Shown here piece after piece: positions 2,528 to 24,823 of a DNA stretch of 32,000 nucleotides. This DNA comes from Erysipelotrichaceae bacterium. GTDB taxonomy: Bacteria; Bacillota_I; Bacilli_A; Erysipelotrichales; Coprobacillaceae. Position 1 is the stretch's first letter; the number at the start of each line of letters is the position of its first letter. Both the position numbers and the translations under genes were made by a program. The notes below the pieces were generated by a model. That model made no database searches, was not told the origin of the DNA, and saw only the letters and a list, made by a program, of their open reading frames with translations. The stretch covers positions 150,001 to 182,000 of the forward strand of contig JAQVDW010000001.1 of the NCBI GenBank assembly GCA_028698185.1. The letters run 5' to 3'.

Positions 2528-2737
2528 CTAAAAAACGCCCTTAAAATAAGGACGTCATAAACGCGGTACCACCTTAATTCGTGTAATTCACACGCACTCT
2601 GTCTTAACGCGACTAACGTTTACTTCTACTGTCTTCAAAGTAACTCTTCCCGGGTGTCCCGCAGAGGTCAAATCAATATTTTCACCAGCCATATTGTCTC
2701 TGTAATCGTCTTCCTGCTTAATCCCGTTCCCTAGATT
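2528..2737 (-). promoter_or_regulatory. T-box leader (tRNA-sensing transcription attenuator) of hisS-aspS
   Basis: The minus strand carries the conserved T-box sequence AATTAAGGTGGTACCGCG (plus-strand cgcggtaccacc at 2562-2573). A terminator hairpin CGTCCTTAttttAAGGGCG plus a T6 run follows just before the hisS RBS. A CAC (His) triplet at 2656-2658 lies in a plausible specifier position, but that assignment is tentative. Confidence 0.85.
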
Positions 2738-2743
2738 AACCAC

Positions 2744-2795: not shown

Positions 2796-2828
2796 AAAAC
2801 TCAACCCCGACTGTCATTCAGGGTTGAG
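2796..2828 (-). terminator. Rho-independent terminator ending the SipW operon
   Basis: An 8-bp stem CTCAACCC/GGGTTGAG (2800-2807 and 2821-2828) is followed by TTTT on the minus strand. It overlaps the sipW stop codon. Confidence 0.6.
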
Positions 2829-3315
2829 TAGGCATTTTTTCTTGGTCTTTCCGGTACATATCTGCCAGGTAGCTAAGCAGTATCATCAAAGCCACCACGG
2901 ATCCCAGGATGATCTTGCCATTGAAACTGATTGCGAACACCGCCACATATCCCAGGTATGGGATTGTGAACATTGGCACCCCGACAATATTGTCATATGC
3001 CACCTTGGAACCATCGGCAGTATTGTTGGCATCGCCCTTGGTCGTGTAGAGCATCGCCTGCTGGTCCACCTCTATCACTCGGTGGGTTACCAGAGCTGAA
3101 CTGGATATCTGGAAGGTGATGGGATCGCCAACTTCTATCGTATCGAAATTCTTGTTTACGAAAACCAGACTACCCACATGGTAGGTTGGCTCCATCGAGC
3201 CCGACAGCACCACATAAGGGCTGATTCCGACGATTCTAGGAACATACAGCAATGCCATGAACGCAACTACAATGACTATGATTGCATTGGTTAAGTAATG
3301 GATTAGTTTTACCAT
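2818..3315 (-). CDS. sipW: Signal peptidase I, SipW (ER/archaeal) type
   Basis: The protein has an N-terminal TM segment followed by LSGSMEPTYHVGSLVFV...VTHRV...TKGDANNTADG and a C-terminal TM segment. This is the S26B SipW-like pattern. The ATG at 3315 shares 1 nt with the upstream gene's TGA stop, which suggests translational coupling. The track's extra M is a TTG codon. Confidence 0.85.
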   Translation of the reverse strand: MVKLIHYLTNAIIVIVVAFMALLYVPRIVGISPYVVLSGSMEPTYHVGSLVFVNKNFDTIEVGDPITFQISSSALVTHRVIEVDQQAMLYTTKGDANNTADGSKVAYDNIVGVPMFTIPYLGYVAVFAISFNGKIILGSVVALMILLSYLADMYRKDQEKMPTQP

Positions 3316-4190
3316 CAACGGTTACCACGTTTTTTCTTGAATACAAGCAACCAGAGCACGGTCGCTGCCGCCAACGCAGCTGCAACTGCAGCCGCTGTGA
3401 TTGTGGTTGTATTCCAGAAGCCCGGTGTCAATGGCACATCATCGTCATCGATTATTATTCCACCATCGTCATCGATTATTATTCCACCATCGTCATCGGT
3501 TCCGGTCCCGTCATCATCGGTTGTTGTCCCATCATCGGTTGTTGTCCCATCATCGGTTGTTGTCCCATCATCATCGGTTGTTGTTCCACCACCGGGAGTA
3601 ACAACAGTGATTTGATTTCCAGTGCCCGGTACAACAACTACTGAAGTTGTCACACCACCGGAACTTGAACCACCACCCCCTGACGTGCTAGTAAGGGTCG
3701 AGGTGTAATGGAAGCTGATTTGAACACCATCCTGGCTTATTGTTGCGGTTTTAACCGCGGCATCGACTGCGTAATCCTGGATTTCCAAGGCCAGTACGCT
3801 TACCGGAGCATTAAGATTGGTTGTCTTGACAACCGACGTTGCCAGAGGTTTGTCATTTTCATCAAGATAGTTTATCTGGTATGTTACCGAATCGATAATC
3901 TTGCGGTACTGTGCGACAAAGGTGTCTTCCCTGGTCACTGTTTCAGGCACATCAAGGTAAAACCCGGTAAAGAAATAACCTTCGTTCACATCGATGGCCG
4001 CCTGGATCAGATCCGGATCCAAAGTTGTCCCATATTCCAGATTGAGAACAACCCGGTCCTGGGAAGCGATGCTTCCCTGACTACCGGTCTTGAACGTTAT
4101 ATCGTAACTACGCAATGCATTGGCTGGCAACAGGGTAAAGAACATCATCACGACGATGCCAATCATCACTTTCAATGATCTACTTTTCAT
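3315..4190 (-). CDS. Surface adhesin-like protein (P3) with, in order, a signal peptide, a Listeria-Bacteroides-type repeat, a MucBP-like domain, a Thr/Asp/Gly-rich repeat stalk and a C-terminal TM anchor with a basic tail
   Basis: Supporting motifs are YDITFKTGSQGSI...GYFFTGFY...TFVAQY (List-Bact repeat pattern) and VTYQINYLDENDKPL...ISFHY (MucBP-like). The stalk carries (DDGTTT)n and (DDDGGIII)2 repeats. The tail is PLTPGFWNTTTITAAAVAAALAAATVLWLLVFKKKRGNR. I prefer the ATG at 4190, which follows RBS AAGGGGTG and overlaps the upstream stop by 11 nt. The track's start at 4199 is a GTG. Confidence 0.6.
   Translation of the reverse strand: MKSRSLKVMIGIVVMMFFTLLPANALRSYDITFKTGSQGSIASQDRVVLNLEYGTTLDPDLIQAAIDVNEGYFFTGFYLDVPETVTREDTFVAQYRKIIDSVTYQINYLDENDKPLATSVVKTTNLNAPVSVLALEIQDYAVDAAVKTATISQDGVQISFHYTSTLTSTSGGGGSSSGGVTTSVVVVPGTGNQITVVTPGGGTTTDDDGTTTDDGTTTDDGTTTDDDGTGTDDDGGIIIDDDGGIIIDDDDVPLTPGFWNTTTITAAAVAAALAAATVLWLLVFKKKRGNR
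3441..3590. repeat. In-frame tandem DNA repeats inside the P3 stalk
   Basis: A 24-bp unit atcgtcatcgattattattccacc occurs twice exactly (3441-3464 and 3465-3488) plus a partial third copy. An 18-bp unit catcatcggttgttgtcc occurs three times exactly (3512-3565), and a fourth copy carries a 3-nt insertion. Confidence 0.9.
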
Positions 4191-4806
4191 GTTTACCACC
4201 CCTTTTGTATAGTATCAGCACTAATCCCGCTGCCACGATCAAGCCACCATAGACAAGCGGTGAAACCGATTCGTCGCCGGTTTTGACAATCTTTGGCAAA
4301 GGCTGCTCGACTGAGAATATGAAATTGACTACCCCGGTTTGCCCTTGATATTCGTTGTTGGCCGAATCCCCGTCCAGTGAAAGGGTGACATTGATTGTCT
4401 TTGATGCGCCGGCATTCAAAGTCCCCAACAGGATGTTGTTGTCATTGGTCAGAAACTGCAACCCGATGGTCACTTCATCATTTCCGACTTCGGTTTCAAA
4501 AAACGGTGTTGTCCCATCGGCGATGGTGAATGTGTACACCGCATCCCCGTCACCTTTGTTTGCGATATTGTCGAGAATCTCGCTTGACATATAGAAACGC
4601 ATCTGTCCGCCACTGCCATTTACCAGATTGAAAGTGACTGTTCTTGATTCACCTGGAAGCATGTTTTCGAAATCCGGGGCATTACCGTCAAGCATTATGA
4701 ATCTGTTGGCATCACCTTGATAGGTGATCACATCCGCTGCAGCCACATTGTTCATTGACAGAAAAGCTACAAGAGTGATGGCCAAACCAATTATCAGTTT
4801 TTTCAT
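4180..4806 (-). CDS. Secreted cell-surface protein (P2) with TasA/camelysin-like beta-sandwich motifs and an LPXTG-like C-terminal sorting signal
   Basis: The signal peptide ends VAA/AD. Motifs MLPGESRTVTFNLVNGSG and NEYQGQTGVVNFIFSVEQ resemble TasA-family strands. The C-terminus is PLPKIVKTGDESVSPLVYGGLIVAAGLVLILYKRGGKHEK. The ATG at 4806 has better spacing from AGAGGG than the ATG at 4812. Confidence 0.5.
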   Translation of the reverse strand: MKKLIIGLAITLVAFLSMNNVAAADVITYQGDANRFIMLDGNAPDFENMLPGESRTVTFNLVNGSGGQMRFYMSSEILDNIANKGDGDAVYTFTIADGTTPFFETEVGNDEVTIGLQFLTNDNNILLGTLNAGASKTINVTLSLDGDSANNEYQGQTGVVNFIFSVEQPLPKIVKTGDESVSPLVYGGLIVAAGLVLILYKRGGKHEK

Positions 4807-4821
4807 TTTCATCCCTCTTTT

Positions 4822-5466
4822 CTACAATCCGATTGAAACAATGTTATCATCGGCGTCAAATTCAACATCAACGCCCCACTCAGCCTTGAAAGAATCCTTG
4901 GCGTCAAAGGTCTGAACACCATAACCAAAGAACTCGAGATGGACGATCTTGTCAGCGTAAAGATTGTTGTTTTGGGTCACATCCAGATATGTGTACGAAT
5001 CGATGACCGTTGCATACTCCCCTGGATCAAGTGGTCTGGTGTAGTACGCATAGGTGACTTCGGAATACTCATCACCTTCGAAAACAAGCCAGCCGTTCGC
5101 TACAGTGAATTGGATTTGGGCAGGATCGAGGTAATTTGGGTCATTCTGATCGGTTGTGTTTTTGGTCCCGTCTTCATCGGCCCAGTAGCGGTAAATCGTC
5201 ACCCTGACGTAGGCTGTCGTATTTTCGGTGTTTTTGATCGCCAGTCCGCCATCGATGACGTCACCCGGCATTCCATACACTTCACTTTCCAAGAAATTGT
5301 CAGTTATCGTGCTACCGTCACCATTGACAAAGTCTATGCCAAGATATGGGGTGTAGATAGCCTTCTGGGTTTCAAAACTGCTTTGAATGACACTGTAAGT
5401 GCCATGAACGCTAAAACCAACTACTCCTAGTATGAATATCATTCCTATTATTATCTTCTTGTTCAT
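4822..5466 (-). CDS. TasA/camelysin-family secreted protein (P1), first gene of the SipW operon
   Basis: An N-terminal hydrophobic signal is followed by GTYSVIQSSFETQ. The body has MPGDVIDGGLAIKNTENTTAYVRV and a C-terminal FFGYGVQT motif shared with the other paralogues. The ATG at 5466 follows RBS AGAGGTGA. The track's start at 5475 is a GTG. Confidence 0.6.
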   Translation of the reverse strand: MNKKIIIGMIFILGVVGFSVHGTYSVIQSSFETQKAIYTPYLGIDFVNGDGSTITDNFLESEVYGMPGDVIDGGLAIKNTENTTAYVRVTIYRYWADEDGTKNTTDQNDPNYLDPAQIQFTVANGWLVFEGDEYSEVTYAYYTRPLDPGEYATVIDSYTYLDVTQNNNLYADKIVHLEFFGYGVQTFDAKDSFKAEWGVDVEFDADDNIVSIGL

Positions 5467-5490
5467 ATTTATCACCTCTATATCACTTGT

Positions 5491-5523
5491 ATTTTAACTT
5501 GAGCCAGTCACATGTCAGTCACA
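5491..5523 (-). promoter_or_regulatory. Candidate activator-dependent promoter A with 11-bp-periodic direct repeats plus a -10
   Basis: The minus strand reads TGTGAC-tgaca-TGTGAC-tggctcaagt-TAAAAT. On the plus strand, gtcaca lies at 5507-5512 and 5518-5523, and the -10 at 5491-5496. No -35 hexamer is present. Sites at 11596-11628 and 24824-24856 have identical architecture. Confidence 0.7.
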
Positions 5524-5564
5524 TCTTTATCAATTATTGTTTTAAAGGAAGTGAATTGTTACCC

Positions 5565-5593
5565 TTTATAAAAACCTGGAAATCTTGTATAAT
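5565..5593 (+). promoter_or_regulatory. Putative sigma-A promoter of the plus-strand transglutaminase / type IV filament-like operon
   Basis: TTTATA (5565-5570), a 17-nt spacer and TATAAT (5588-5593) lie about 75 nt upstream of the ATG at 5667. Confidence 0.45.
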
Positions 5594-5666
5594 TACCATA
5601 TGTGAGCAAACCGCAATTGAAACTCCGATTTTGGAGCTTTGCTCAACGACAAGAGGTGATATCCAG

Positions 5667-6587
5667 ATGAAATTCAAATCCCTGATCATCGCAGCCATGC
5701 TTTTAAGCGGATGTGGTACCAAAACCCAGACAACATCCCCTTTGAATCTCGCTCCCTCCTCCAATAAAGCTACCTTGAAAAGCGAGCCGGTTTTCTATCT
5801 TGCCAGCTTCAATGAAGGAAAAACCCAAGGCAACGAAGCGGTGGAAATCGACCTGACCAATGTCGTCAAAGGTTATTTTGGAGTGAAATACAATGGAACC
5901 AACGACAGGCCCAAACTCCAGCTTACACTGCCTTCAGGGGCCATCTACACATACAACCTGACCGGAAAAATCGACTTTTTCAATCTGGTCGAGACATCGG
6001 GCACGTATGTGATCACGGTCTATGAAAATATCGAAGGCAACCGCTATGGCAAGATATTCAAGACCAGCTTTGAAGTTGAGCAGGAAAACGGATTCAATGC
6101 CTTCTTGTACAACAACCAGTATGTCAATTTCGACAAGGACACCCAGGTTGCATATGTTGCCAGCGAGCTGGTCACAAATGCGTCTTCATCCCTTGAAAAG
6201 ATCCAGCTGATCTTCGATTACATTATTACCAACTACGATTATGACTATCAAAAGGCTAAAATTGTCGCTTACGATTATATTCCGGATCTAAACTCTATCT
6301 ACCAATCCAAAAAAGGGATATGCTTCGATTACGCGGCATTGCTTGTTGCGATGCTGCGCACCCAGGCCATCCCGACCCGGCTGGAATTCGGATATGTCAA
6401 AGACACATATCATGCCTGGGTCAGTGTCTATACGGATCAGACCGGTTGGATCGACAATTTCATCTATTTTGAAAACGAGAACTGGCAAATCATGGATCCC
6501 ACCTTCATCTCGCAAGACCCAGGCAACAAGAAAATCCAGGAATTCACGACCGACAGCGAAAATTATGAGCTGAAATACATCTTTTAA
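5667..6587 (+). CDS. Lipoprotein with a transglutaminase-like (Cys-His-Asp) core domain
   Basis: The ATG at 5667 follows RBS AAGAGGTGA. The signal is MKFKSLIIAAMLLSGC, with lipobox LSGC. The catalytic-core pattern is KKGICFDYAALLVAMLRTQAIPTRLEFGYV...YHAWVSVY...WQIMDPT. I judge the track's upstream extension from 5487 to be non-coding. Confidence 0.8.
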   Translation: MKFKSLIIAAMLLSGCGTKTQTTSPLNLAPSSNKATLKSEPVFYLASFNEGKTQGNEAVEIDLTNVVKGYFGVKYNGTNDRPKLQLTLPSGAIYTYNLTGKIDFFNLVETSGTYVITVYENIEGNRYGKIFKTSFEVEQENGFNAFLYNNQYVNFDKDTQVAYVASELVTNASSSLEKIQLIFDYIITNYDYDYQKAKIVAYDYIPDLNSIYQSKKGICFDYAALLVAMLRTQAIPTRLEFGYVKDTYHAWVSVYTDQTGWIDNFIYFENENWQIMDPTFISQDPGNKKIQEFTTDSENYELKYIF

Positions 6588-6598
6588 TGGAGGCGGCA

Positions 6599-7531
6599 AT
6601 GAGAAACGATTACGATCTAATCATCAATTTTTCAAAGCAGATGTATCTGATTTCCACCAGTGGCCAAAGTTTCTTGGCGGGACTTAGATTGCTTGAAACC
6701 AACACCACGCAAATGCGGATGAAAAATCTTTTGACCCAGGTTATCGCCCAGCTCGAACAAAATGACATCATTTTTGCCCTGGAAAGCACCGGGCTGTTTG
6801 ACGAGCTTTATCTTGACCTGATCAAAGCCGGCCTGCATTCTGGAAATCTTGACGAAGTATTTCTTCACCTGACAAACTATTACAAGCAACTTGATCAAAG
6901 CAACAGGAAATTAAGAAGGCTGTTGAATTTCCCCATCGGCATGAGCCTGGTCATGATGGTGATCATGATTATACTGGTGACCAGGATTCTCCCGGTATTC
7001 AGCGACCTTTATGCAGGCATGGGAGCCCAGCTGACCGGTGTTGCCAGGATAAGCCTTCAGCTGGGATACTTCATCAATGATTACCTCGTTTACTTCATCA
7101 TCATTGTGCTATCTGGTGTGCTTTTGTTGCTGGGAATGATCCGGCAAGACAAGGTTGGGATCTTCAAAAAGGCAAAGGCTCTCAATCGGGCATCCAATGA
7201 GCTTTTTGCCGTTTCCACCCTGGTAAAGGCCGGAGTTTCTTTCGATCAGGCAGCTGGAATAGCCAACATGTCCAAATCGGGCGTGATCGAGGCGTTTTCT
7301 TCCCGGCTCGAGCCTCTTGAGCTGTCCTTGTTGGAAATGAGCATCCAGAACGGAACCCATGAAAAGGTTATCGAGATGCTTTTCGACGAGTATCGCCAGA
7401 AGGCCAATACAAGGATGGATGAATCATTGGCCAAGTTCGAACTATACTTTGGCACCGGTTTTGTCGTCATTGTAGCCATCGTCATGCTGTCATTGATCTT
7501 GCCGCTTTTCGCGATTCTTTCAGAATTATGA
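6599..7531 (+). CDS. Type II secretion / type IV pilus platform protein (GspF/PilC/ComGB family)
   Basis: There are two T2SSF-like repeats (LIKAGLHSGNLDEVF; LVKAGVSFDQAAG) separated by TM segments (LPVFSDLYAGMGAQL). It is about 310 aa, close to ComGB in size. The ATG at 6599 follows a GGAGG. Confidence 0.8.
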   Translation: MRNDYDLIINFSKQMYLISTSGQSFLAGLRLLETNTTQMRMKNLLTQVIAQLEQNDIIFALESTGLFDELYLDLIKAGLHSGNLDEVFLHLTNYYKQLDQSNRKLRRLLNFPIGMSLVMMVIMIILVTRILPVFSDLYAGMGAQLTGVARISLQLGYFINDYLVYFIIIVLSGVLLLLGMIRQDKVGIFKKAKALNRASNELFAVSTLVKAGVSFDQAAGIANMSKSGVIEAFSSRLEPLELSLLEMSIQNGTHEKVIEMLFDEYRQKANTRMDESLAKFELYFGTGFVVIVAIVMLSLILPLFAILSEL

Positions 7532-7812
7532 AGATAGTAAGATTAGCGCTGGTTATTGTTGCATTGGCCCTGGGAATCATCTTTATCAATCAGTTCCACC
7601 AGACCAGCCAGGAAAACGCTTTGCATGCACTCGAGCAGTCGATCAATGACAAAATACTGCTTTGTTACATCAATGAGGGGCGTTATCCCGAATCACTGGG
7701 ATATCTTGAGGAAAATTACGGCCTAAGCTTCGATAAGACAAGATATCAGGTTTTTTTGATCCCGATTGGAGAAAACATCATACCTGACTTGACGGTATTC
7801 GCCTATGAATAA
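7528..7812 (+). CDS. Small pilin/pseudopilin-like protein (94 aa) without a canonical prepilin cleavage motif
   Basis: The start overlaps the upstream stop (ATGA). An N-terminal hydrophobic helix MKIVRLALVIVALALGIIFI continues into a GspG/ComGC-like YINEGRYPESLGYL segment. There is no G(-1) and no E(+5). Confidence 0.45.
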   Translation: MKIVRLALVIVALALGIIFINQFHQTSQENALHALEQSINDKILLCYINEGRYPESLGYLEENYGLSFDKTRYQVFLIPIGENIIPDLTVFAYE

Positions 7813-8221
7813 AAGCAACTTGTTTTCATACCTCATTACCGGCATCTTCATCTTCACCCTTAGCGCCATCTGCATCCTTATGCTAAACATCACAAACAAG
7901 ACAGCCATAGCCCAAGATGCCCTTGTAGATGAGCAGTTTGTGATCAGCTTCATAAACGAAAAGATCAAGCGGGCCAAATCGGTTGAAATAAAAAAAGATG
8001 ATACCTCGGACATTCTTGCACTCGAAGATGGTTCTTCATATGTGACCTACCTGTACAACAACGATGGTTACCTATGCGAGCTTTATGTGCCGGCCGGCCG
8101 GGAATTCGATATGGAATATGGGGACCGGATATGTTCCATGGAAAAACTGGACATGGATCTCATTGATGGCCTGCTTGTAATCAACGAAAACTACTACTTG
8201 AACCTGGAGGGCAAGCCGTGA
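7805..8221 (+). CDS. Small bitopic protein (138 aa), ComGF-like minor pseudopilin candidate
   Basis: The start overlaps the upstream stop by 8 nt. It has an N-terminal TM segment (LFSYLITGIFIFTLSAICILML). Its size and layout resemble ComGF-family proteins. This is based on similarity of pattern only. Confidence 0.35.
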   Translation: MNKSNLFSYLITGIFIFTLSAICILMLNITNKTAIAQDALVDEQFVISFINEKIKRAKSVEIKKDDTSDILALEDGSSYVTYLYNNDGYLCELYVPAGREFDMEYGDRICSMEKLDMDLIDGLLVINENYYLNLEGKP

Positions 8222-8586
8222 AAGATAAGATAAGCATGCTCGAGCTATGTGTCAACCTTATGGTTTTCGCAATCGCCCTGGCGCTGGTCATCCAGATCAT
8301 GATGAAAACAACTCTCATCAATTACCACAACACGATCAAGGCCAAAGCAATCATCCAGCTCAACAGTATTGTCGCAATCCTGCAAGAACATCAAGGCGAT
8401 CTTGAAGGTTACTACCAAACCAGTGATTCGCTAATCCTTTTTGACAGCAACAATATAAACACCACGGACGATTATTATTATTGCGTAAAAGTTGAAAACA
8501 ATTTCCCGATATTCCATCTTGATGTTTACGATAAATATGACAACCTGATCATCGCGACTGACTACGAGGTGGCTTATGAAGATTAG
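8218..8586 (+). CDS. Small pilin-like protein (122 aa) with a degenerate class III signal
   Basis: The GTG start overlaps the upstream TGA (GTGA). The N-terminus MKDK/ISMLELCVNLMVFAIALALV places Glu at +5 relative to a putative cleavage site, but Lys rather than Gly sits at -1. Confidence 0.4.
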   Translation: MKDKISMLELCVNLMVFAIALALVIQIMMKTTLINYHNTIKAKAIIQLNSIVAILQEHQGDLEGYYQTSDSLILFDSNNINTTDDYYYCVKVENNFPIFHLDVYDKYDNLIIATDYEVAYED

Positions 8587-8962
8587 AATCGGGCTGACAA
8601 GCCTTTTCAATATCATCATCATCCTGGTATTGATCACATTGACATTCAACTCATACATCCAGACCAAGGCCAGCCAAACCCTGATTGACCAGAACCTCGC
8701 CCACAACCTCACCTACCTTGAGGCCAGGTCGATAATCAACCGTTTCATCAACGACAGCCGGGAAATTCCGTTGACGAATCTTCAGGACCAATACGATTTT
8801 CAAATGGAAGCAAATGTGATAACTTTCCAGGAGGTCATTGACTATGGCCAGACAGTCACATTGGTTTACGATTATAATGCCAAGCAAATCATCTCCTTGC
8901 AGGTCCAAAACAATTCGGATTACCAGCTAGATGACTTGGCTCCAGTCTACACAGGAGAATGA
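8576..8962 (+). CDS. Small pilin-like protein (128 aa), ComGG-like candidate
   Basis: The N-terminus MKIRIG/LTSLFNIIIILVLITL has Gly at -1 but no Glu at +5, as in ComGG/GspK-type minor pilins. It overlaps the upstream gene by 11 nt. Confidence 0.4.
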   Translation: MKIRIGLTSLFNIIIILVLITLTFNSYIQTKASQTLIDQNLAHNLTYLEARSIINRFINDSREIPLTNLQDQYDFQMEANVITFQEVIDYGQTVTLVYDYNAKQIISLQVQNNSDYQLDDLAPVYTGE

Positions 8963-8963
8963 T

Positions 8964-10016
8964 ATGGAAATTACTTCAATTCTGCACCGGGCAATAACCA
9001 TGCAGGCTTCGGATATCTTTATCGAAGCCAACATCCCAGTCAAGTTCAAGAAAGACAATCAACTGTGCCCCTTGAACAATGATGTACTCACCACCGAAGA
9101 CACCAAACAGCTTATCAGCCAGATTTACGAAATCGCCAAGCGCGATGTCGATATCCTCTTCAATGACGGCGATGACGATTTCGCCTTCTCGATAGCCCAC
9201 CTTTCCCGCTTCCGGGTGAGCATGTTCAAACAGCGGGGCTCACTGGCTTGCGTGATCCGGATCATCGCCTTCAAGCTGCCGGATTTCCAGGAATTGAACA
9301 TTCCCGAACAGCTGATTGATCTAGGCGACCAGACCAACGGGCTGATCCTTTTCACCGGTCCTTCAGGAAGCGGCAAATCCACGACCCTGGCATGCATCAT
9401 CGACTACATCAACCACAAATATGCCCGTCATGTCATCACTCTTGAAGACCCTATCGAGTATCTTCATGTCCACAACAAATCGATAATCACCCAGCGGGAG
9501 ATCGGCAATGACACCAACTGTTATCTGACCGCCCTGAGGGCCAGCCTGCGCCAGTGTCCCGATGTCATCCTGCTTGGGGAGATGCGCGACCATGAAACTA
9601 TCGAGACTGCGATAACCGCAAGCGAGACCGGCCACCTGGTGTTTTCCACACTCCATACAATCGGCGCAAGCAATACAATCAACCGGATCATCGATGCCTT
9701 TCCAGCCAATGAGCAGCCACAGATAGCGATGATGCTCTCACTGACCCTCAATGCGGTCGTGTCGCAGCATCTCGTTCCCGATATTTCCGGTAAGCTCATT
9801 CCGGTGTTTGAAATCATGATTGTCAATCCGGCCATCCGCAACCTGATAAGAGAAAAAAAGATCCACCAGATCGACTCGATCATTGAAAGCGACCGGCAAA
9901 ACATGGTGACCCTTGACAACAGTCTGCTGCAACTTTACCAGGACCGTATCATATCCAGGGAAACAGTGATCAAGTACTGCAAGAACAACCAATATATCAC
10001 CCAGAAATTGGGATAG
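8964..10016 (+). CDS. pilT: PilT/PilU-family type IV pilus (retraction-type) hexameric ATPase
   Basis: The ATG at 8964 follows AGGAGA and lies 1 nt after the upstream stop. Motifs read by eye are ASDIFIE, Walker A GPSGSGKSTTL, ITLEDPIEY, PDVILLGEMRDHETIETAITASETGHLVFSTLHT, INRIIDAFPANEQPQI and NPAIRNLIREKKIHQI. This set is diagnostic of PilT rather than PilB/GspE/ComGA. Confidence 0.85.
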   Translation: MEITSILHRAITMQASDIFIEANIPVKFKKDNQLCPLNNDVLTTEDTKQLISQIYEIAKRDVDILFNDGDDDFAFSIAHLSRFRVSMFKQRGSLACVIRIIAFKLPDFQELNIPEQLIDLGDQTNGLILFTGPSGSGKSTTLACIIDYINHKYARHVITLEDPIEYLHVHNKSIITQREIGNDTNCYLTALRASLRQCPDVILLGEMRDHETIETAITASETGHLVFSTLHTIGASNTINRIIDAFPANEQPQIAMMLSLTLNAVVSQHLVPDISGKLIPVFEIMIVNPAIRNLIREKKIHQIDSIIESDRQNMVTLDNSLLQLYQDRIISRETVIKYCKNNQYITQKLG

Positions 10017-10074: not shown

Positions 10075-10725
10075 TTAAGAATATTGTTCGATTGCCGCTG
10101 CAGGCCAACCAGTGATCATGCCACCTGGGTTGGTTGTAGGTGTCACATTAGCTGCTTGAATCGCTTCAGCCTTTACAGTTATTATGTAATCATCGTTTGT
10201 GCTGCTGTTGGTCAAGCTGCTTGGGAATGATACTGTAGAGAATACAGTTACGTTTGCGCCAGCTGCCAAAGAGTTCTTATAATACACATATGCACTTTCT
10301 GAACCATCAGGATTACTTGTCAAACCACCGATAAACCAATCACTTGTGTTGATATTTAAATAACTCAACAAAGTAGCTTCAGAGATGACCCCATCGCCTC
10401 CGGTATCTATCGTCTTAAGAGTAACCAGTGCGCGGACATAACAATCTTCAGATCCAGCCATTACTGTAATTACAGGCTGTTTGGAATAGACATCGCCAGG
10501 CATTACATCATTGTAATCGTAACCGTCATCAGTAGCCGTACCAGCCTTAACGCCAGGTCCTGCAACTGAAGTTTCTCTTAAATCGATGTCAACATGTCCC
10601 ATTGTGATTGTGTTGGTTTCAGTTTTGGTGTAGTCAGTGAAGTATGCCAGCGTGAATCCGACAGTGGCACTGAGTGCAATCGCTGCTGTAGTGACAATTG
10701 CAGCAATTTTCTTGTTCAATTTCAT
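10075..10725 (-). CDS. TasA/camelysin-family protein (P4) with a SipW-dependent-type signal peptide
   Basis: The signal GFTLAYFTDYTKTETNTITMGHVDIDL matches the TasA-type signal (compare B. subtilis TasA GGGTWAAFNDIKSKDATFASGTLDL). The body has MPGDVYSKQPVITVMAGSEDCYVRALV and a C-terminal KAEAIQAANV. Confidence 0.8.
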   Translation of the reverse strand: MKLNKKIAAIVTTAAIALSATVGFTLAYFTDYTKTETNTITMGHVDIDLRETSVAGPGVKAGTATDDGYDYNDVMPGDVYSKQPVITVMAGSEDCYVRALVTLKTIDTGGDGVISEATLLSYLNINTSDWFIGGLTSNPDGSESAYVYYKNSLAAGANVTVFSTVSFPSSLTNSSTNDDYIITVKAEAIQAANVTPTTNPGGMITGWPAAAIEQYS

Positions 10726-10780
10726 AATATTTTCTCCTTTTTTAATTATGTTTAGTGATCGTTGAATTAATCAATTAATA

Positions 10781-11464
10781 TCAAGGCGCTGGGTATCCGG
10801 CAAGGGTTTTCAAAGCTGTTGCCTTGTCAGTTCCAGCTGGCAATGATATTTGAACACCATAAGCAGTTGCATCTATTTCCAATTTTGGTAAGTTACCTGA
10901 ACCATCAGGAACCAATCCGAAGGAAATCAACACTTGGGTGAACAATGGTGATGTCGTTGCTTGAGCTGAATCGGCTACAAGATAAGAATTGAAAACAAAG
11001 AAATCATTGTTTGCAGGTACTGTCGATTCATTAGACCATTCGTCTACTGCCGCTCCAGTGTCAAATACGATGCTGTCATCTCGAAGATATGTCGCAAATG
11101 TTGCATAAGGAACTACAACATCGTTAACCTTGTAGGTCAACTTCATTGCCACGTAGGTGTTGTCGCTTCCGGTCATGGCTTTGATGGTCGGATCTTTAGG
11201 CACAGTATCTCCTGGCAAGTACTCATTGGCTATGTTGTAACCAAGGGTTACATCATCTGATTTAGGTGATGTACCGCCCGGCCAAGCTTCTGAAAAATCG
11301 TATCCATCCCATGCCGGTTCTCTTAACTCAATGTCGATTCCCCGTGATGATGTAAAAACGTTTGTTGCCGATGATGTGGTATCAGTCAAAAGAGCCATAG
11401 TCAATGACAGGGTAAGACCAAAAACCAATGCAAAAATCATTAAATACTTTGTGAATTTCTTCAT
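10781..11464 (-). CDS. TasA/camelysin-family protein (P5) with a SipW-dependent-type signal peptide
   Basis: Supporting motifs are MALLTDTTSSATNVFTSSRGIDIELREPAWDGYDF, LPGDTVPKDPTIKAMTGSDNTYVAMKL and C-terminal ATAYGVQ. It is a clear paralogue of P6 (23417-24118). Confidence 0.8.
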   Translation of the reverse strand: MKKFTKYLMIFALVFGLTLSLTMALLTDTTSSATNVFTSSRGIDIELREPAWDGYDFSEAWPGGTSPKSDDVTLGYNIANEYLPGDTVPKDPTIKAMTGSDNTYVAMKLTYKVNDVVVPYATFATYLRDDSIVFDTGAAVDEWSNESTVPANNDFFVFNSYLVADSAQATTSPLFTQVLISFGLVPDGSGNLPKLEIDATAYGVQISLPAGTDKATALKTLAGYPAP

Positions 11465-11595: not shown

Positions 11596-11628
11596 ATAAT
11601 ATTATTTACCTGTCACACTGAAGTCACA
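11596..11628 (-). promoter_or_regulatory. Candidate activator-dependent promoter B, with the same architecture as promoter A
   Basis: The minus strand reads TGTGAC-ttcag-TGTGAC-aggtaaataa-TATTAT. On the plus strand, gtcaca lies at 11612-11617 and 11623-11628, and the -10 at 11596-11601. It sits immediately downstream of the regulator's terminator. Confidence 0.7.
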
Positions 11629-11643
11629 AGATTGAAAAACCAC

Positions 11644-11673
11644 AAAAAAACTTGGCTCAGTTAGACCCAAGTT
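11644..11673 (-). terminator. Rho-independent terminator of the regulator gene
   Basis: The stem ACTTGG/CCAAGT, which includes the last codons of the CDS, is followed by T7 on the minus strand. Confidence 0.6.
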
Positions 11674-12856
11674 TTTGACTGTTGCAAGTTATGTAGATGT
11701 CGTTTTTTTTCAGACCGCGGTAAAAATATTTCTCGATTCTCTCGATAACCAAGGTTGCATCGTCAATATTGCACATGCTAAGAAGACAGCTGTACTGATT
11801 GGGCGAGACCTTGGAAACCGAATCGCTGTTGCGCAGTGCATCAATCAAAACATCTTCAACACGGTCCATTCCCCTATTCAAGGTATCCCGGAAGATCTTG
11901 GAATGGCCGTCAAACGGTTTCATCACATTAACCGAGACCAGAAGCAAAGTCGAATCGAACGAGTGTCTTTGCGCCAGCCGAAGCTCAAGATTGCATAGGT
12001 TTTTAAATGCACCGTAATCACAGACAAGGACGTTCTTTGATTGCAGTGGAACAATGTCCTGCTGGACCTTGTCAATCGATTCATTGGCCGGCAGAAACCG
12101 GCTCAAGATCTGCTCATAAGTCTTGATCAGCTTATCACTCGGCAAAACCCCAAGCTCATGATTTAGAATATATTTGGCTGTCTCATATTTGACCCGGGCA
12201 AGTTCAAACTCGTTATTTTGACCAAGGGCTAGGATTTCATAACGGTAAAAATCCTCTTCCGTATTGTCAAGCGACAAAGCGTTGTTAGAATAGAAATAGA
12301 GGTCATCGTAAAACTTCTGGTTGTAAAGCACCTTCAGAAAATCTTTTGTCATTTTCAAAAAAACATTGTGATAATACATCGAATTCTGCATTATTAACGA
12401 ATCGTAATCAAAATGGGCAAACAGACGGTCCTGATAAATTTCTGTCGCTTTTTTATAATGGTCGATCTTGGTCAGATCATCCATTTTGTCGTCAACTGAA
12501 CTTATCAGTGCATAAAACTCCTCAAAATCGACGATCAGCTTGACCTGTGAATTCCAGAAATATGTTCCCGACCCGGTCATTATCAGTTCCTGATCAGGCC
12601 ACACCTGCTTCATGACTGTCCGCAAACGGTAGACCAGGTTTTTAAGTGCCCCAATCGGATTGGAACTCTCATCATCTTCCCAAAGGTAATCGCACAAATC
12701 CGATAACGGGATGATGGTATTATGATGGGTAATAAAATAAAAAAGCAGTTTGGCCAGGCGCTTCGACTTGAGCATTGTCAGGTTGAGCTGGCCGACGTCG
12801 TTACTGATCTGGAATTCACCAAAGGCATAGACGTTCAAAACACAAGAATATTCCAT
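11657..12856 (-). CDS. SARP-like transcriptional activator (OmpR-type winged helix plus BTAD/TPR-like domain) with a C-terminal degenerate GGDEF-like domain
   Basis: The N-terminus VYAFGEFQISNDVGQLNL...KRLAKLLFYFITHHNTIIPLSDLCDYLWEDDESSNPIGALKNLVYRLRTVM fits the SARP/EmbR-type wHTH pattern. The middle region is helical and BTAD-like (ARVKYETAKYILNHELGVLPSDKLIKTYEQIL). The C-terminus LRNSDSVSKVSPNQYSCLLSMCNIDDATLVIERIEKYF aligns to R-x-x-D-(5 aa)-GGDEF-vvll...A..iAErIr of GGDEF domains. Confidence 0.65.
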   Translation of the reverse strand: MEYSCVLNVYAFGEFQISNDVGQLNLTMLKSKRLAKLLFYFITHHNTIIPLSDLCDYLWEDDESSNPIGALKNLVYRLRTVMKQVWPDQELIMTGSGTYFWNSQVKLIVDFEEFYALISSVDDKMDDLTKIDHYKKATEIYQDRLFAHFDYDSLIMQNSMYYHNVFLKMTKDFLKVLYNQKFYDDLYFYSNNALSLDNTEEDFYRYEILALGQNNEFELARVKYETAKYILNHELGVLPSDKLIKTYEQILSRFLPANESIDKVQQDIVPLQSKNVLVCDYGAFKNLCNLELRLAQRHSFDSTLLLVSVNVMKPFDGHSKIFRDTLNRGMDRVEDVLIDALRNSDSVSKVSPNQYSCLLSMCNIDDATLVIERIEKYFYRGLKKNDIYITCNSQKLGSN

Positions 12857-13059: not shown

Positions 13060-15288
13060 CTAGTGGATAATCCTTTTGACATCGTATATGCCGATGATTT
13101 TTTCAAGGTTGACAAAGGCGATCTGCAGGGAATCGTTGTCTTCGACTGCGAGCTTGAGCTGAATAAAAGCCTCCGCATCCTGGGTTTCGGCGTTTATTTT
13201 CAAGATGGAAATCTTGCTTTGTCCCAGTACGTTGATAATCTCATTGAGAAGATTGCCCCGGTCAAGACCGCGGATTTCGATATCGACGTCAAACTTGTGG
13301 TTGAAAGTCTGCGCATTGTCCCAGTACACAGGAATCAGCCGCTTTTTGATCTCCGGATTCTGGACATTGGGACAGCTGGCCCGGTGAACCTTTATCCCCT
13401 GCCCTTTGGACACGAAACCGACGATATCATCGCCAGGTATCGGGTTGCAGCATCTTGAGAGTGTGATCTTGATTCCGTCGATTCCCTCAACGACAACCCC
13501 GGTTTTGGAAACGTTGGCTTTGGCCTGATTCGCCGCCAGGTTGCTGTTGCGCTGGAGCATCTTCGAAATGTTGTCGATCAGGCCGCCGCGTTTTGGATTT
13601 ATCTTGTCGATGACCGACATCGGCAGCAGCGTCTTCTTGCCGATGAAAAACAGGATGTCTTCGAAGCTCTTGGCACCGAAGGCCCCAAGATAAGTCTTGT
13701 ATGTCTCCTCATTGAGATATTTGGTCTCGTCGAGTTTTCTCTTGCGAACCTCGTCCTTGAAGATTTTCCGGCCCGCTTCCACCATTTCCTTGCGGCTTTG
13801 GGCTTCGACCTTGGTAATGTACTGGCGGATCTTGTTCCTTGCACCGGTGGTCCGGACGAACTTCAACCAGTCGCGGTTGGGTGTGGCGTTCTTGCTTGTC
13901 TTGATTTCGACCACATCGCCGGTTTTGAGCTTTGTGTTAATCGGCACCATGACATTGTTGACAACGGCACCCACACAGGTATTTCCGACTTCCGAGTGGA
14001 TCCGGTAGGCAAAGTCGATTGGCGTCGACCCGTTGGGAAGCTCGATGATTTTCCCCTTGGGGCTCAAGACATAGACATTCGCCTCGAAGATGTCCCGCTT
14101 CAAACTGTCGTAGAATTCCTTGGCATCACGGTCCTTGATATCGTCGGACAGAGTGATGAAATCGCGGAGCCATTGGAGCTTTTCACCGATCTCCTGCTGT
14201 TCCTTTTGCGACGAATAGCCCCGGTTTTCCTTGTAGCGCCAGTGGGCCGCAACCCCGAGTTCCGCCAGTTCGTCCATCAGTTCGGTCCTTATCTGGATTT
14301 CATAAGTATGGCCGTCATCACCGATGATCGATGTATGCAATGACTGGTACATGTTTGGCTTGGGCATCGCGATGTAATCCTTGAACCGGCCGGGAATCGG
14401 GCGATAATGTTCGTGAATCAGACCGAGAATTGTATAGCATGACTGCTTGTTGTCGGTGATGACCCGCAAGGCATAGAGATCATAAATCTCATCGAATCGC
14501 TTGTTCTTGATGAACATCTTCTTGTAGATGCTGTAGATCGACTTTGGCCGGCCGACAATCCGGTATGTGATCTTATGGGTGTCAAGGAGATCGGATACAT
14601 CATGGATCATCTTGTCGATATAGCCCCTGCGCTGTTCCTCTTTTTCCTTGAGCAACAAGACGATATCATTGTAGGCTATCGGATCGAGATAAGACAGCGA
14701 AAGGTTTTCTAATTCCGTCTTGATGTCCGAAAGCCCGAGCCTATGGGCAATCGGGGTGTAGACCTCAAGTGTCTCGCGGGCGATTTTCTTTTGCTTTTGG
14801 GGCTTCATGAACTGCAGGGTCCTCATATTGTGAAGCCGGTCGGCAAACTTGATCAAAATGACCCGGATGTCGCTGGCCATGGCGATGTAGATCTTGCGGT
14901 GGTTTTCCGCATAAACCTCATCCTCATCCTTGAAATCCATCTTGTTGATCTTGGTGACCCCTTCGACCAGGGTCGTCACCTCGTCACCGAAGCGTTCGAC
15001 CATTTCCGGCCGGGGCACATCGCAGTCTTCCATGACATCATGCAACAAGCCCGCCGCAATCGTCTTAGGACCGGTCTGCAATGTCGCCAAGATGTAGGCG
15101 ACCCAAAGCAAGTGGTTGGTATACGGCTCACCGCTGCGCCGTTTCTGGTCGGCGTGTTTGATCATGATAAATTCATAGGCCCGATTGATCAAATCGAGAT
15201 CTTCCGGGTTGGTAACATAATTTTTTACTACATCAACGATATCCTGGAACGCCACTACTTCATGGGCCCCTTTACCACCTTTAAACAT
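13060..15288 (-). CDS. relA: Bifunctional (p)ppGpp synthetase/hydrolase RelA/SpoT (Rel)
   Basis: The 742-aa ORF has an HD hydrolase domain (HLLWVA...LHDVMED), a synthetase domain (YRSLHT-like SLHTSIIG), and TGS and ACT regions. It follows apt and recJ, as in Bacillus. Confidence 0.95.
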   Translation of the reverse strand: MFKGGKGAHEVVAFQDIVDVVKNYVTNPEDLDLINRAYEFIMIKHADQKRRSGEPYTNHLLWVAYILATLQTGPKTIAAGLLHDVMEDCDVPRPEMVERFGDEVTTLVEGVTKINKMDFKDEDEVYAENHRKIYIAMASDIRVILIKFADRLHNMRTLQFMKPQKQKKIARETLEVYTPIAHRLGLSDIKTELENLSLSYLDPIAYNDIVLLLKEKEEQRRGYIDKMIHDVSDLLDTHKITYRIVGRPKSIYSIYKKMFIKNKRFDEIYDLYALRVITDNKQSCYTILGLIHEHYRPIPGRFKDYIAMPKPNMYQSLHTSIIGDDGHTYEIQIRTELMDELAELGVAAHWRYKENRGYSSQKEQQEIGEKLQWLRDFITLSDDIKDRDAKEFYDSLKRDIFEANVYVLSPKGKIIELPNGSTPIDFAYRIHSEVGNTCVGAVVNNVMVPINTKLKTGDVVEIKTSKNATPNRDWLKFVRTTGARNKIRQYITKVEAQSRKEMVEAGRKIFKDEVRKRKLDETKYLNEETYKTYLGAFGAKSFEDILFFIGKKTLLPMSVIDKINPKRGGLIDNISKMLQRNSNLAANQAKANVSKTGVVVEGIDGIKITLSRCCNPIPGDDIVGFVSKGQGIKVHRASCPNVQNPEIKKRLIPVYWDNAQTFNHKFDVDIEIRGLDRGNLLNEIINVLGQSKISILKINAETQDAEAFIQLKLAVEDNDSLQIAFVNLEKIIGIYDVKRIIH

Positions 15289-23382: not shown

Positions 23383-23416
23383 ATGTAGCTATTCTCCTTT
23401 CTATGATTTTGAAATC

Positions 23417-24118: not shown

Positions 24119-24160
24119 TATTATCACCTTACCTCTTTTGCAATATAAGTTGATTGATCA

Positions 24161-24763: not shown

Positions 24764-24823
24764 ATATACCACCTTTATTCTGTTAGCTATTTTCATACAA
24801 ATATCACTATTCTATTCATTCAA

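Follow-up and report, generated by a model that had tools for sequence, protein, structure and literature searches.

A SARP-type regulator with a degenerate, truncated GGDEF domain: a candidate c-di-GMP-responsive activator of matrix-fibre operons in gut Firmicutes

Introduction

What signal is read by a transcriptional regulator that lies among genes for TasA-like matrix fibres and carries, at its C-terminus, a domain resembling a diguanylate cyclase that has lost its catalytic motif? Matrix fibres and pilus-like secretion are classic c-di-GMP outputs, and few direct receptors of this messenger are recognised in the Firmicutes (riboswitches, PilZ proteins, YdaK, PssE and PelD). The human and animal gut harbours abundant Lachnospiraceae, Clostridium, Eubacterium and Erysipelotrichales. 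The question arises from a preliminary description of 32 kb of Erysipelotrichaceae DNA (the whole stretch analysed, hereafter the window), in which the regulator was proposed to join a winged-helix and BTAD activator to a degenerate GGDEF-like domain that keeps an RxxD motif at the spacing of the cyclase inhibitory site (I-site), making it a possible c-di-GMP sensor.

The regulator and its N-terminal SARP module

The gene and the N-terminal part of its product are laid out as follows.

11657-12856, minus strand: regulator gene, 399 aa plus stop, wHTH-BTAD-(degenerate GGDEF)
12569-12763, minus strand: OmpR-type winged-helix DNA-binding domain, residues 32-96 (Pfam Trans_reg_C, E=2.1e-5)
12104-12532, minus strand: BTAD (bacterial transcriptional activator) domain, residues 109-251 (Pfam BTAD, E=3.1e-9)
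12038-12091, minus strand: flexible linker from the SARP module to the GGDEF-like domain, residues 256-273 (pLDDT <50 in the full-length model)

The protein is identical to NCBI MDD3808816.1, labelled 'BTAD domain-containing putative transcriptional regulator [Erysipelotrichaceae bacterium]', and the segment quoted in the preliminary description, ...LRNSDSVSKVSPNQYSCLLSMCNIDDATLVIERIEKYF..., is found in the 399-aa translation of this reading frame. Domain assignments place the regulator in the SARP-family layout, with an N-terminal OmpR-type winged helix followed by a BTAD domain. This N-terminus had been proposed earlier and is confirmed by the two Pfam matches, by a match of residues 36-249 to the AfsR SARP structure 8hvr (E=5.4e-9) and by Foldseek, in which the module resembles the folds of AfsR and EmbR (TM normalised to the target 0.71-0.74 for AfsR). 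The Trans_reg_C domain is matched by Pfam in all 28 relatives searched (28/28), and residues 69-79 of the winged helix correspond to the family-invariant alignment columns G-A-L-K-N-L-x-Y-R-L-R.

A truncated GGDEF fold without catalytic residues

The remainder of the protein, and the two positions in it at which catalytic residues would be expected, are listed below.

11660-12028, minus strand: GGDEF-fold domain, degenerate and cut short at the C-terminus, residues 277-399 (profile searches and AlphaFold/Foldseek)
11933-11935, minus strand: S308, where cyclases have the metal-binding Asp of beta1 (first D of 'DxD', by profile alignment)
11792-11806, minus strand: SPNQY, residues S351-Y355, in place of the GG[DE]EF catalytic hairpin

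Searches of Pfam, NCBIfam and the PDB with the window protein alone gave no significant GGDEF match, so family profiles were required. The weak PDB match returned by phmmer was the diguanylate cyclase 3ign (E=0.089), in which RNSD lies opposite RQSD and SPNQY opposite GGEEF. Taken by themselves, these single-sequence results (no Pfam GGDEF match; E=0.089 in the PDB) would suit the view that the likeness to GGDEF is accidental or an artefact of by-eye alignment and that the region is an unrelated alpha/beta domain. However, profile searches, family-wide Pfam matches and the fold search point exclusively to GGDEF, and we attach practically no credence to that view. A profile of 20 family C-terminal domains matched GGDEF domains in 21 of 21 PDB hits (best 6zxm, 8e-8), which, together with the Foldseek result below, refutes an unrelated fold. 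Pfam GGDEF is found in 23 of the 28 relatives at E<=1 (best 2.7e-6), the window protein itself falling below threshold.

The AlphaFold model of residues 270-399 (pLDDT 90.3, pTM 0.84) contains an alpha0-beta1-alpha-beta2-beta3-alpha3-beta4 core, in which the signature hairpin joins beta2 to beta3, and its top 50 Foldseek matches in the PDB are all GGDEF domains (probability 1.00, TM normalised to the query 0.67-0.75). The elements are alpha0 (281-298), beta1 (303-311), a long helix (320-340), beta2 (346-351), beta3 (354-359), alpha3 (364-379) and beta4 (387-395). Profile and model evidence thus assign the C-terminal ~120 aa unambiguously to the GGDEF fold (Pfam PF00990). The by-eye alignment from which the proposal started therefore stands as to fold, and the AlphaFold/Foldseek comparison suggested with it confirms GGDEF and rules out a non-GGDEF fold; its extent has to be corrected, as the domain is truncated and ends after beta4.

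The protein stops at residue 399, and the last ~45 residues (the C-terminal third) of a ~160-aa GGDEF domain are absent. Profile alignments to 6zxm end near residue 270 of the 318-residue chain, and the TM normalised to the target is only 0.55-0.62 for the C-terminal domain model. Cyclases bind the guanine base through Asn/Asp in alpha1/alpha2 and the phosphate through Lys/Arg in alpha4, the latter being K442 and R446 in PleD. In the regulator, the alpha1/alpha2 region aligns with gaps and without a conserved Asn or Asp, and the alpha4 region is wholly absent. The GG[DE]EF motif occurs in 0 of 170 relatives (representatives at 50% identity), the hairpin having instead a family consensus of S-x-[NST]-Q-[YF] in which S351 and Q354 are nearly invariant. 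The beta1 position, S308 in the segment LLVSVNV (residues 305-311), is Thr in 139 and Ser in 26 of the 170; its PleD counterpart is presumably D327. Because GG[DE]EF is replaced by SPNQY, the metal-binding Asp by Ser/Thr, and the last ~45 residues are missing, the domain is predicted to be incapable of diguanylate cyclase activity. Both losses named in the preliminary description, that of the catalytic motif and that of the beta1 Asp, are accordingly borne out across the family.

Conservation of the inhibitory site

Four residues that bind c-di-GMP in product-inhibited cyclases have counterparts in the regulator.

11822-11833, minus strand: RNSD (RxxD), R342-D345, aligned with DgcR R206xxD209 and PleD R359xxD362
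11738-11740, minus strand: R373 in helix alpha3, the third primary I-site residue, equivalent to PleD R390, DgcR R237 and PelD R402
11966-11968, minus strand: R297 at the end of helix alpha0, the secondary I-site Arg, aligned with DgcR R163

Codon arithmetic agrees with the DNA positions originally given for RNSD (11822-11833) and SPNQY (11792-11806). R342-N-S-D345 is followed by five residues (SVSKV) and then by SPNQY, which is the canonical I-site geometry; this spacing, the core of the original proposal, is upheld by the phmmer, profile and PleD alignments. The motif also aligns with RQSD, RSSD and RRSD of other solved cyclases. R373 lies 31 residues past R342, a spacing identical in PleD and DgcR, and hhalign of the regulator domain against PleD gives R359, D362 and R390 as the I-site counterparts. 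Against 6zxm (DgcR with c-di-GMP), R342/D345 correspond to R206/D209, R373 to R237 and R297 to R163, the last through a profile alignment that pairs R297 with chain residue R183 (DgcR R163, offset 20). DgcR R206, D209, R237 and R163 have been assigned roles in the c-di-GMP site, R163 touching c-di-GMP bound to the partner subunit (PMC8041772). The PleD counterpart of DgcR R163 is R313, a secondary I-site residue involved in cross-linking. The two arginines R373 and R297, which go beyond the RxxD of the preliminary description, make the case for an I-site stronger than it was there.

The family ranges over the Lachnospiraceae, Clostridium, Eubacterium and Erysipelotrichales and forms at least 1,500 clusters when grouped at 50% identity. 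Conservation was assessed in 81 genomic relatives and in 170 representatives clustered at 50% identity. R342, D345, R373 and R297 are kept in 80, 79, 79 and 78 of the 81 relatives and in 167, 169, 165 and 166 of the 170 representatives, respectively; R342, D345 and R373 are kept jointly in 164 of the 170. The domain has only 14 positions that are at least 90% conserved and all four I-site residues are among them, for which our own arithmetic gives a chance of ~1e-4. Conservation of the RxxD exceeds chance. A tandem paralogue in one relative (L074, 10001-11215) has lost R293, R297, R342, D345 and R373 together, while the neighbouring copy retains them. The alignments indicate that the I-site positions that contact c-di-GMP in solved cyclases are all kept and are nearly invariant in the family. 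With so little change in the pocket throughout this large gut-Firmicutes family, the regulator probably represents a type of c-di-GMP-sensing gene switch that has not been described.

An I-site role does not account for several further residues that are nearly invariant, C279, Y281, F284, Y288, S351, Q354 and C362. Five of these (C279, F284, S351, Q354 and C362) would fit a domain that senses no nucleotide and acts as a dimerisation or partner-docking module, the Arg/Asp/Arg surface being a protein-protein interface. The docking partner could be an active cyclase or, for example, one of the small conserved 'TWQG...FRSALEL' proteins (~145 and ~70 aa), for which Pfam gave no domain match. In 41-44 of 78 loci their reading frames adjoin the regulator, and they form C-terminal fusions with it in two loci (L028 and L036) and in representatives of 548-558 aa, so that they could be the real input. 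The window locus and its closest relatives (L001 and L002) are without these partner frames, yet all four I-site residues are present in them. Moreover, the conserved positions match, one by one, the residues that contact the nucleotide in solved complexes, and the RxxD is dispensable for the fold, being treated in the literature as an optional allosteric motif and not as a structural element (PMC2952852). We therefore regard an interface function as unlikely, although by no means negligible.

A further alternative is that the domain responds to a redox signal, or to a small molecule or nucleotide other than c-di-GMP (GTP, pGpG, (p)ppGpp, cGAMP or c-di-AMP), either in a remodelled hairpin pocket (S351/Q354 with C279/C362) or in an altered I-site. 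The hairpin has not decayed at random, the conserved S-x-[NST]-Q-[YF] placing amides where cyclases have two acidic residues, and the two cysteines are well conserved (C279 in 81/81 and C362 in 70/81 relatives). Degenerate GGDEF domains that bind GTP do exist, CC3396 and FimX being so cited in PMC2952852; PleD structures with (p)ppGpp are present in the PDB (9g85 and 9g86), and relA/spoT is the gene adjoining the regulator in the window. Nevertheless, the elements for GTP binding are gone (the beta1 Asp, the base-binding Asn/Asp segment, which is variable or gapped, and the whole C-terminal part), other loci do not share the relA neighbourhood, and conservation has fallen on the residues for c-di-GMP binding. 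Sensing of a different ligand is accordingly considered quite improbable.

The TGTGAC operator and predicted target operons

Three paired repeats in the window precede TasA-like genes, and the first of them sits just downstream of the regulator stop codon.

11596-11628, minus strand: operator/promoter 1, TGTGAC-ttcag-TGTGAC-N10-TATTAT, 132 bp upstream of the TasA-like gene 10781-11464
5491-5523, minus strand: operator/promoter 2, TGTGAC-tgaca-TGTGAC-N10-TAAAAT, 16 bp upstream of the TasA-like gene 4822-5475
24824-24856, minus strand: operator/promoter 3, TGTGAC-tgcta-TGTGAC-N10-TAGTAT, 28 bp upstream of the TasA-like gene 24161-24796
10075-11464, minus strand: predicted target operon 1, two genes for TasA/camelysin-like proteins (227 and 216 aa) that carry SipW-type signal peptides
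2818-5475, minus strand: predicted target operon 2, a TasA-like protein (217 aa), a 210-aa secreted protein and two further genes, one for a 294-aa protein weakly matched by the MucBP repeat and one for a SipW-like S26 signal peptidase (166 aa)
20803-24796, minus strand: predicted target operon 3, two TasA-like proteins (211 and 236 aa) together with a VWA-domain protein of 859 aa; BsaA/BsaB/BsaC-like
5487-10016, plus strand: Tad/type-II-secretion-like cluster (transglutaminase-like, T2SSF, DUF4860, small pilin-like reading frames and T2SSE ATPase)

The window has exactly three copies of TGTGAC-N5-TGTGAC, against none in 100 shuffles, and it is only the phased pair that is enriched, the lone hexamer being found 16 times in the window against 16.3 expected. 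The composite TGTGAC-N5-TGTGAC-N10-TAnnAT is present in 41 copies, three in the window and 38 in 24 other genomes, always on the strand of the regulator and nearly always 13-132 bp upstream of TasA-like or VWA genes. SARPs bind repeats spaced by 11 bp, with the 3' repeat ~8 bp from the -10 element (PMC10936776). The geometry of the operator, with 11-bp direct repeats over the -35 region, matches this rule, and the pair is the predicted binding site. The suggested link between the regulator and the fibre genes is thus supported by a conserved SARP-type operator that precedes those genes. The conserved operator also provides a ready predictor of the regulon and a simple reporter assay, which makes the hypothesis cheap to test.

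The genomic neighbourhood

The Tad/type-II-secretion-like genes are a recurrent neighbour of the regulator (18-27 of 79 loci). Genes for GGDEF, EAL, HD-GYP or PilZ proteins are absent from the 32-kb window and from ~12 kb beyond it, a point against the c-di-GMP hypothesis, and exact-protein look-up of these flanks found housekeeping genes only. Three Coprobacillaceae relatives (L065, L035 and L052) have intact GGDEF, HD-GYP and EAL genes at most 10 kb from the regulator, and intact GGDEF genes lie beside it in Thomasclavelia spiroformis, of the same bacterial family. Overall, GGDEF/EAL genes occur within 10 kb in 15 of 78 loci, which is not clearly above the chance level given the many such genes in Clostridia, and this lack of demonstrable enrichment is a point in favour of the protein-interface function discussed above. 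Neither the window nor any of 20 related loci yielded a c-di-GMP riboswitch, a result that is neutral for the c-di-GMP hypothesis. When the T. spiroformis REC-HD-GYP-GGDEF protein was used as a full-length query, orthologues were found, for example in Amedibacterium; a domain-only GGDEF query matched unrelated short fragments only.

A proposed mechanism

The reading that we favour, by a modest degree, is that the regulator is a 'large SARP' in which a dead, truncated GGDEF sensor keeps only the c-di-GMP inhibitory site, and that the protein is a c-di-GMP-responsive activator. The domain folds and homologies, the loss of catalysis, the four near-invariant I-site positions and the operator with its place before matrix genes are directly supported. 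To these are added c-di-GMP binding, a dimerisation step and the sign of regulation (activation), which we infer.

When c-di-GMP rises, an intercalated dimer of the messenger would occupy the primary I-site (R342, D345 and R373) of one protomer and would also be held by R297, the alpha0 secondary I-site residue, of a second, a cross-link like that between the GGDEF domains of DgcR and PleD. The cross-link would create or stabilise a SARP dimer with its protomers side by side or, alternatively, relieve an autoinhibited one. The SARP dimer could then occupy the two 11-bp-spaced TGTGAC repeats overlapping the -35 region and bring RNA polymerase to the three operons of the window (TasA-like fibre subunits, SipW and the VWA protein).

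A broader proposal, held tentatively and with slightly more doubt than conviction, is that the protein is the founding member of a widespread, undescribed class of c-di-GMP-dependent activators in gut Firmicutes, in which the feedback inhibition of cyclases has become a dimerisation switch driving operons for TasA/BsaA-type fibres and VWA adhesins through TGTGAC-N5-TGTGAC. If c-di-GMP is indeed sensed, bacteria carrying the family would have the messenger directly linked to the transcription of their VWA adhesins and TasA/BsaA-like matrix fibres. This would account for the control of such matrix loci without a riboswitch, and would represent a new evolutionary use of the cyclase feedback site.

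Relation to known systems

Among product-inhibited cyclases, the primary Arg, Asp and Arg and the alpha0 Arg of PleD, DgcR and WspR align with the near-invariant residues of the regulator, and the sharing of the four contact positions with PleD and DgcR suggests that the same cross-linked domain dimer may form. These cyclases are active enzymes in which the cross-link turns catalysis off, whereas in the regulator there is no catalysis and the cross-link would signal dimerisation.

PelD (Pseudomonas aeruginosa and Bacillus cereus), PopA (Caulobacter) and PssE (Listeria) have likewise lost GG[DE]EF and kept an RxxD five residues upstream together with the helix Arg. In PelD, R367, D370 and R402 of P. 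aeruginosa and R363, D366 and R395 of B. cereus are each needed for c-di-GMP binding (PMC7112168), and Listeria PssE, with a DKDDA hairpin and an RxxD, binds c-di-GMP with a Kd of 0.79 uM (PMC4125290). Their outputs concern the biofilm matrix, a theme shared with the predicted targets of the regulator. However, the three proteins act post-translationally, on synthases or on protein localisation, and have no DNA-binding domain, whereas the regulator is a SARP fusion. Unlike theirs, its domain is truncated after beta4, and as a c-di-GMP receptor it is a putative member of their group. We know of no truncated GGDEF domain able to bind c-di-GMP.

The large SARPs AfsR and EmbR share with the regulator the wHTH and BTAD fold and a modulating C-terminal domain, and large SARPs share with it repeats phased by 11 bp over the -35 region, the 3' repeat lying ~8-10 bp from the -10. 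The C-terminal sensor differs, AfsR having a NOD/TPR ATPase, EmbR an FHA domain and the regulator a GGDEF-like one. AfsR and EmbR belong to actinomycetes and control antibiotics or the cell wall; the regulator belongs to Firmicutes and is predicted to control matrix fibres.

Direct control of a DNA-binding protein by c-di-GMP, as proposed here, has precedents in BldD, VpsT, FleQ, LtmA, CuxR and Clp, among others. To our knowledge, none of the c-di-GMP-responsive transcription factors binds the messenger through a GGDEF-derived I-site. In BldD, two protomers are glued together by c-di-GMP itself (PMC4151990). A 2025 review of c-di-GMP effectors does not mention SARPs, and the open-access literature yielded no description of BTAD/SARP with GGDEF or of a winged helix with a degenerate GGDEF domain, in keeping with the earlier suggestion that the architecture had not been described.

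The closest parallel to the predicted regulon is sipW-bsaA-bsaB-bsaC of Clostridium perfringens, in which SipW, TasA-like subunits and a VWA protein are likewise combined with a pilus/T2SS-like apparatus. The bsa operon is reportedly under other regulators, as Obana et al. are said to have found in 2020. Neither a SARP-GGDEF regulator nor a TGTGAC box has been reported for it, and the words 'regulator' and 'c-di-GMP' do not occur in PMC11580942. Secretion of its VWA protein, BsaC, depends on the type-IV pilus.

The regulator and its C-terminal domain

The regulator is a protein of 399 aa, translated from ORF 11657-12856 on the minus strand and recorded at NCBI as MDD3808816.1, where it is named only 'BTAD domain-containing putative transcriptional regulator'. 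A Pfam scan of the single sequence places Trans_reg_C at residues 32-96 and BTAD at residues 109-251, with no GGDEF match. The preliminary description had aligned the C-terminal region by eye to GGDEF domains, and its peptide, motifs and five-residue spacing are all present in the translation:

11822-11833, minus strand: RNSD, residues R342-D345
11792-11806, minus strand: SPNQY, residues S351-Y355

The two motifs are separated by the spacer SVSKV, and LLVSVNV occupies residues 305-311. The same alignment is reproduced by phmmer against the PDB, in which one weak match (Marinobacter cyclase 3ign, E=0.089) pairs RNSD with RQSD and SPNQY with GGEEF.

Four lines of evidence agree that the C-terminal domain is a GGDEF domain, and profile searches, Pfam matches of relatives and structural comparison uphold the fold first proposed by eye. 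A profile of 28 full-length relatives matches AfsR and EmbR over its N-terminal half, which is a bona fide SARP, and many GGDEF structures over positions 278-387. Scanned singly, 23 of these 28 relatives contain Pfam GGDEF (best 2.7e-6), and precomputed PF00990 annotation is present on two. All 21 PDB sequences matched by a profile of the family's C-terminal domains are GGDEF domains, the top match (8e-8) being 6zxm, which is DgcR crystallised with c-di-GMP. AlphaFold gives a pLDDT of 86 for the full-length regulator, with a disordered linker at 256-273, and a pLDDT of 90.3 and pTM of 0.84 for the C-terminal domain alone. In Foldseek searches of the PDB, the top 50 matches to the domain model are all GGDEF domains (probability 1.00, TM 0.67-0.75); for the full-length model AfsR and EmbR rank first and GGDEF domains follow.

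Loss of catalysis and retention of the inhibitory site

The GG[DE]EF hairpin is replaced by SPNQY in the regulator and by S-x-[NST]-Q-[YF] across the family, and GG[DE]EF occurs in none of 170 diverse representatives. In beta1, the first Asp of the 'DxD' metal site of cyclases corresponds to S308, a position that is Thr or Ser in the whole family, and the region of the cyclase base-binding Asn and Asp aligns to gaps and variable residues. The regulator ends after beta4, so that ~45 residues of an ordinary GGDEF domain are absent; in PleD, a helix in this part carries the phosphate-binding Lys and Arg. Cyclase activity is therefore excluded, as had been anticipated, and GTP binding at the former active site is unlikely.

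The c-di-GMP inhibitory site (I-site) of cyclases has an RxxD five residues before the hairpin, and the proposal that the regulator keeps this spacing (RNSD, five residues, SPNQY) is borne out by alignments to 3ign, 6zxm and PleD. In DgcR the primary c-di-GMP site comprises R206xxD209 and R237 (the counterpart of PleD R390), and the partner subunit contributes R163, on its helix alpha0, as the secondary site (PMC8041772). Regulator R342, D345, R373 and R297 align with DgcR R206, D209, R237 and R163 when the C-terminal domain profile is compared with 6zxm, whose chain numbering is DgcR +20, consistent with R226, R257 and the position of GGEEF. An hhalign alignment to the PleD GGDEF sequence pairs R342, D345 and R373 with R359, D362 and R390, in agreement with the residue numbering of PleD.

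PelD depends on the same Arg/Asp/Arg triad for c-di-GMP binding in both P. aeruginosa and B. cereus (PMC7112168). Listeria PssE, with a DKDDA hairpin and RxxD five residues upstream, was correctly predicted to be a receptor (Kd 0.79 uM; PMC4125290). The regulator domain shares every sequence feature of this PelD/PopA/PssE class and is predicted to bind c-di-GMP; unlike a complete GGDEF domain, it is truncated.

Conservation across the family

Retention of the four contact residues under selection is evident across the family. Among 81 full-length members, found at 78 loci in a genome scan that also recovered OY776328.1 (91% identity to the window organism's sequence), R342 is kept in 80, D345 in 79, R373 in 79 and R297 in 78. 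Only 14 positions of the domain are conserved at >=90% in the 81 members, and these four are among them, a coincidence with a chance of ~1e-4 by our own arithmetic. A search of 1.84 billion representatives at 50% identity yielded 1,563 proteins at E<=1e-30, the best 150 of which all cover the whole profile. The 170 diverse representatives, drawn from these proteins, retain R342 in 167, D345 in 169, R373 in 165 and R297 in 166, with the R342, D345 and R373 triad intact in 164. The sole genomic member without the four residues (L074:10001-11215, in another genome) has lost R293, R297, R342, D345 and R373, and adjoins a paralogue (L074:8745-10004) that keeps all five. Tandem regulator paralogues also occur in L007, L019, L023 and L041.

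An I-site role leaves invariant C279, Y281, F284, Y288, S351, Q354 and C362 unexplained. The two cysteines may make up a redox or ligand site:

12020-12022: C279, conserved in 81/81 relatives
11771-11773: C362, conserved in 70/81 relatives

That the domain binds a different ligand at a remodelled S/Q/Cys pocket is improbable.

Operator and predicted target genes

The hexamer TGTGAC alone is not over-represented in the window. The direct repeat TGTGAC-N5-TGTGAC occurs exactly three times, vs 0 in 100 shuffles, each time followed by 10 nt and a TAnnAT -10-like hexamer, with a TasA-like gene 16-132 bp downstream. The predicted operator-promoters (TGTGAC-N5-TGTGAC-N10-TAnnAT) are:

5491-5523, minus strand
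11596-11628, minus strand
24824-24856, minus strand

A further 38 copies of this 33-nt composite lie in 24 of the 78 loci (Lachnospiraceae, Eubacterium, Erysipelotrichales), for example at L002:11229-11261, L004:7430-7462 and L061:11246-11278. They are invariably on the regulator's strand and nearly all just 5' of genes for TasA-like (~200-290 aa) or giant VWA proteins. In SARP promoters, direct repeats phased at 11 bp overlap the -35 and the 3' repeat lies ~8 bp from the -10 (PMC10936776); the predicted composite has this geometry. Its identity across these three groups implies that the DNA-recognition helix is very conserved, and GALKNLxYRLR is invariant in the family.

Neighbour clustering of the 78 loci places TasA-like genes in 28, VWA giants in 32 and SipW in 19, and a transglutaminase/T2SSF/T2SSE/DUF4860 cluster accompanies the regulator in 18-27. 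The window itself holds five TasA-like paralogues, SipW, a VWA protein and a T2SS/Tad-like cluster, arranged in three box-headed operons and including:

5487-10016, plus strand: Tad/T2SS-like cluster between two TasA-like operons (transglutaminase-like, T2SSF, 94-aa ORF, DUF4860, two small ORFs, T2SSE ATPase)
20803-23382 and 23417-24796, minus strand: second matrix locus, encoding two TasA-like proteins and a VWA protein of 859 aa

As the second matrix locus, ~9 kb from the regulator, has its own TGTGAC box, at least three separate operons in the window appear to be under predicted control of the regulator. The SipW, TasA-like and VWA genes resemble the sipW-bsaABC set of C. perfringens, and the Tad/T2SS-like cluster recalls the secretion of its VWA protein BsaC, which requires type IV pilus proteins (PMC11580942).

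Proposed mechanism

On balance, the regulator is probably a 'large SARP' with, as its C-terminal sensor, a GGDEF domain of which only the inhibitory site remains. If it works as DgcR and PleD do, a c-di-GMP dimer would link two protomers, contacting R342/D345/R373 on the first and R297 on the second. A SARP has to occupy its two direct repeats as a dimer with the protomers side by side, so dimerisation by the ligand would activate the fibre operons; relief of autoinhibition across the flexible linker could do likewise.

It is rather unlikely that the domain instead serves, independently of any nucleotide, for docking or dimerisation, perhaps with small 'TWQG...FRSALEL' proteins as partners. 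Such proteins, which may be co-regulators, are encoded beside the regulator at 41-44 of 78 loci, and in some genomes they are fused to it; neither the window nor its closest relatives have them. No Pfam family matches these small ORFs of ~145 aa and ~70 aa, which have the motif Q-N-x-T-W-Q-G...F-R-S-A-L-E-L-x-K-L-I-D-S-A in common; examples are:

L016:11213-11647; L038:11194-11625 and 11672-11875; L003:9549-9767: separate partner ORFs
L028:9974-11629; L036:7536-9206: partner fused to the regulator C-terminus

In a comparative-genomics survey, the fusion partners of degenerate GGDEF-only proteins were mostly sensor and not output domains (PMC2952852), and the fusion of the SARP-type activator with such a domain is therefore unusual. 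The preliminary description knew of no earlier account of the arrangement, and no SARP/BTAD-GGDEF regulator was found in the open-access literature searched. The family lends itself well to testing and is broadly distributed in gut Firmicutes.

Genomic context

The window belongs to a Coprobacillaceae/Erysipelotrichaceae MAG. No GGDEF, EAL or HD-GYP genes occur in the window or ~12 kb of its flanks, and a search of the window and 20 loci for c-di-GMP riboswitches found none. c-di-GMP genes neighbour the regulator in 15 of 78 loci overall, with no clear enrichment. In the same bacterial family, Thomasclavelia spiroformis encodes two intact-GGDEF proteins, one of them REC-HD-GYP-GGDEF with its own RxxD, and one GGDEF-EAL protein within 10 kb of the regulator, and in Massilimicrobiota loci a GGDEF-EAL gene lies 3 kb away. 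Turnover genes near the regulator in Coprobacillaceae, encoding TM-GGDEF, REC-HD-GYP-GGDEF (own RxxD) and GGDEF(degenerate)-EAL proteins, are:

L065:2463-11008 (T. spiroformis)
L035:5228-7531
L052:14540-16090

A RelA/SpoT bifunctional (p)ppGpp synthetase/hydrolase gene (13060-15288, minus strand) lies directly upstream of the regulator, an adjacency that is probably coincidental since it is not conserved at other loci. A T-box leader (2545-2740, minus strand, 120.6 bits) precedes the histidyl-tRNA synthetase gene (1229-2527, minus strand), and the same arrangement is present in L002.
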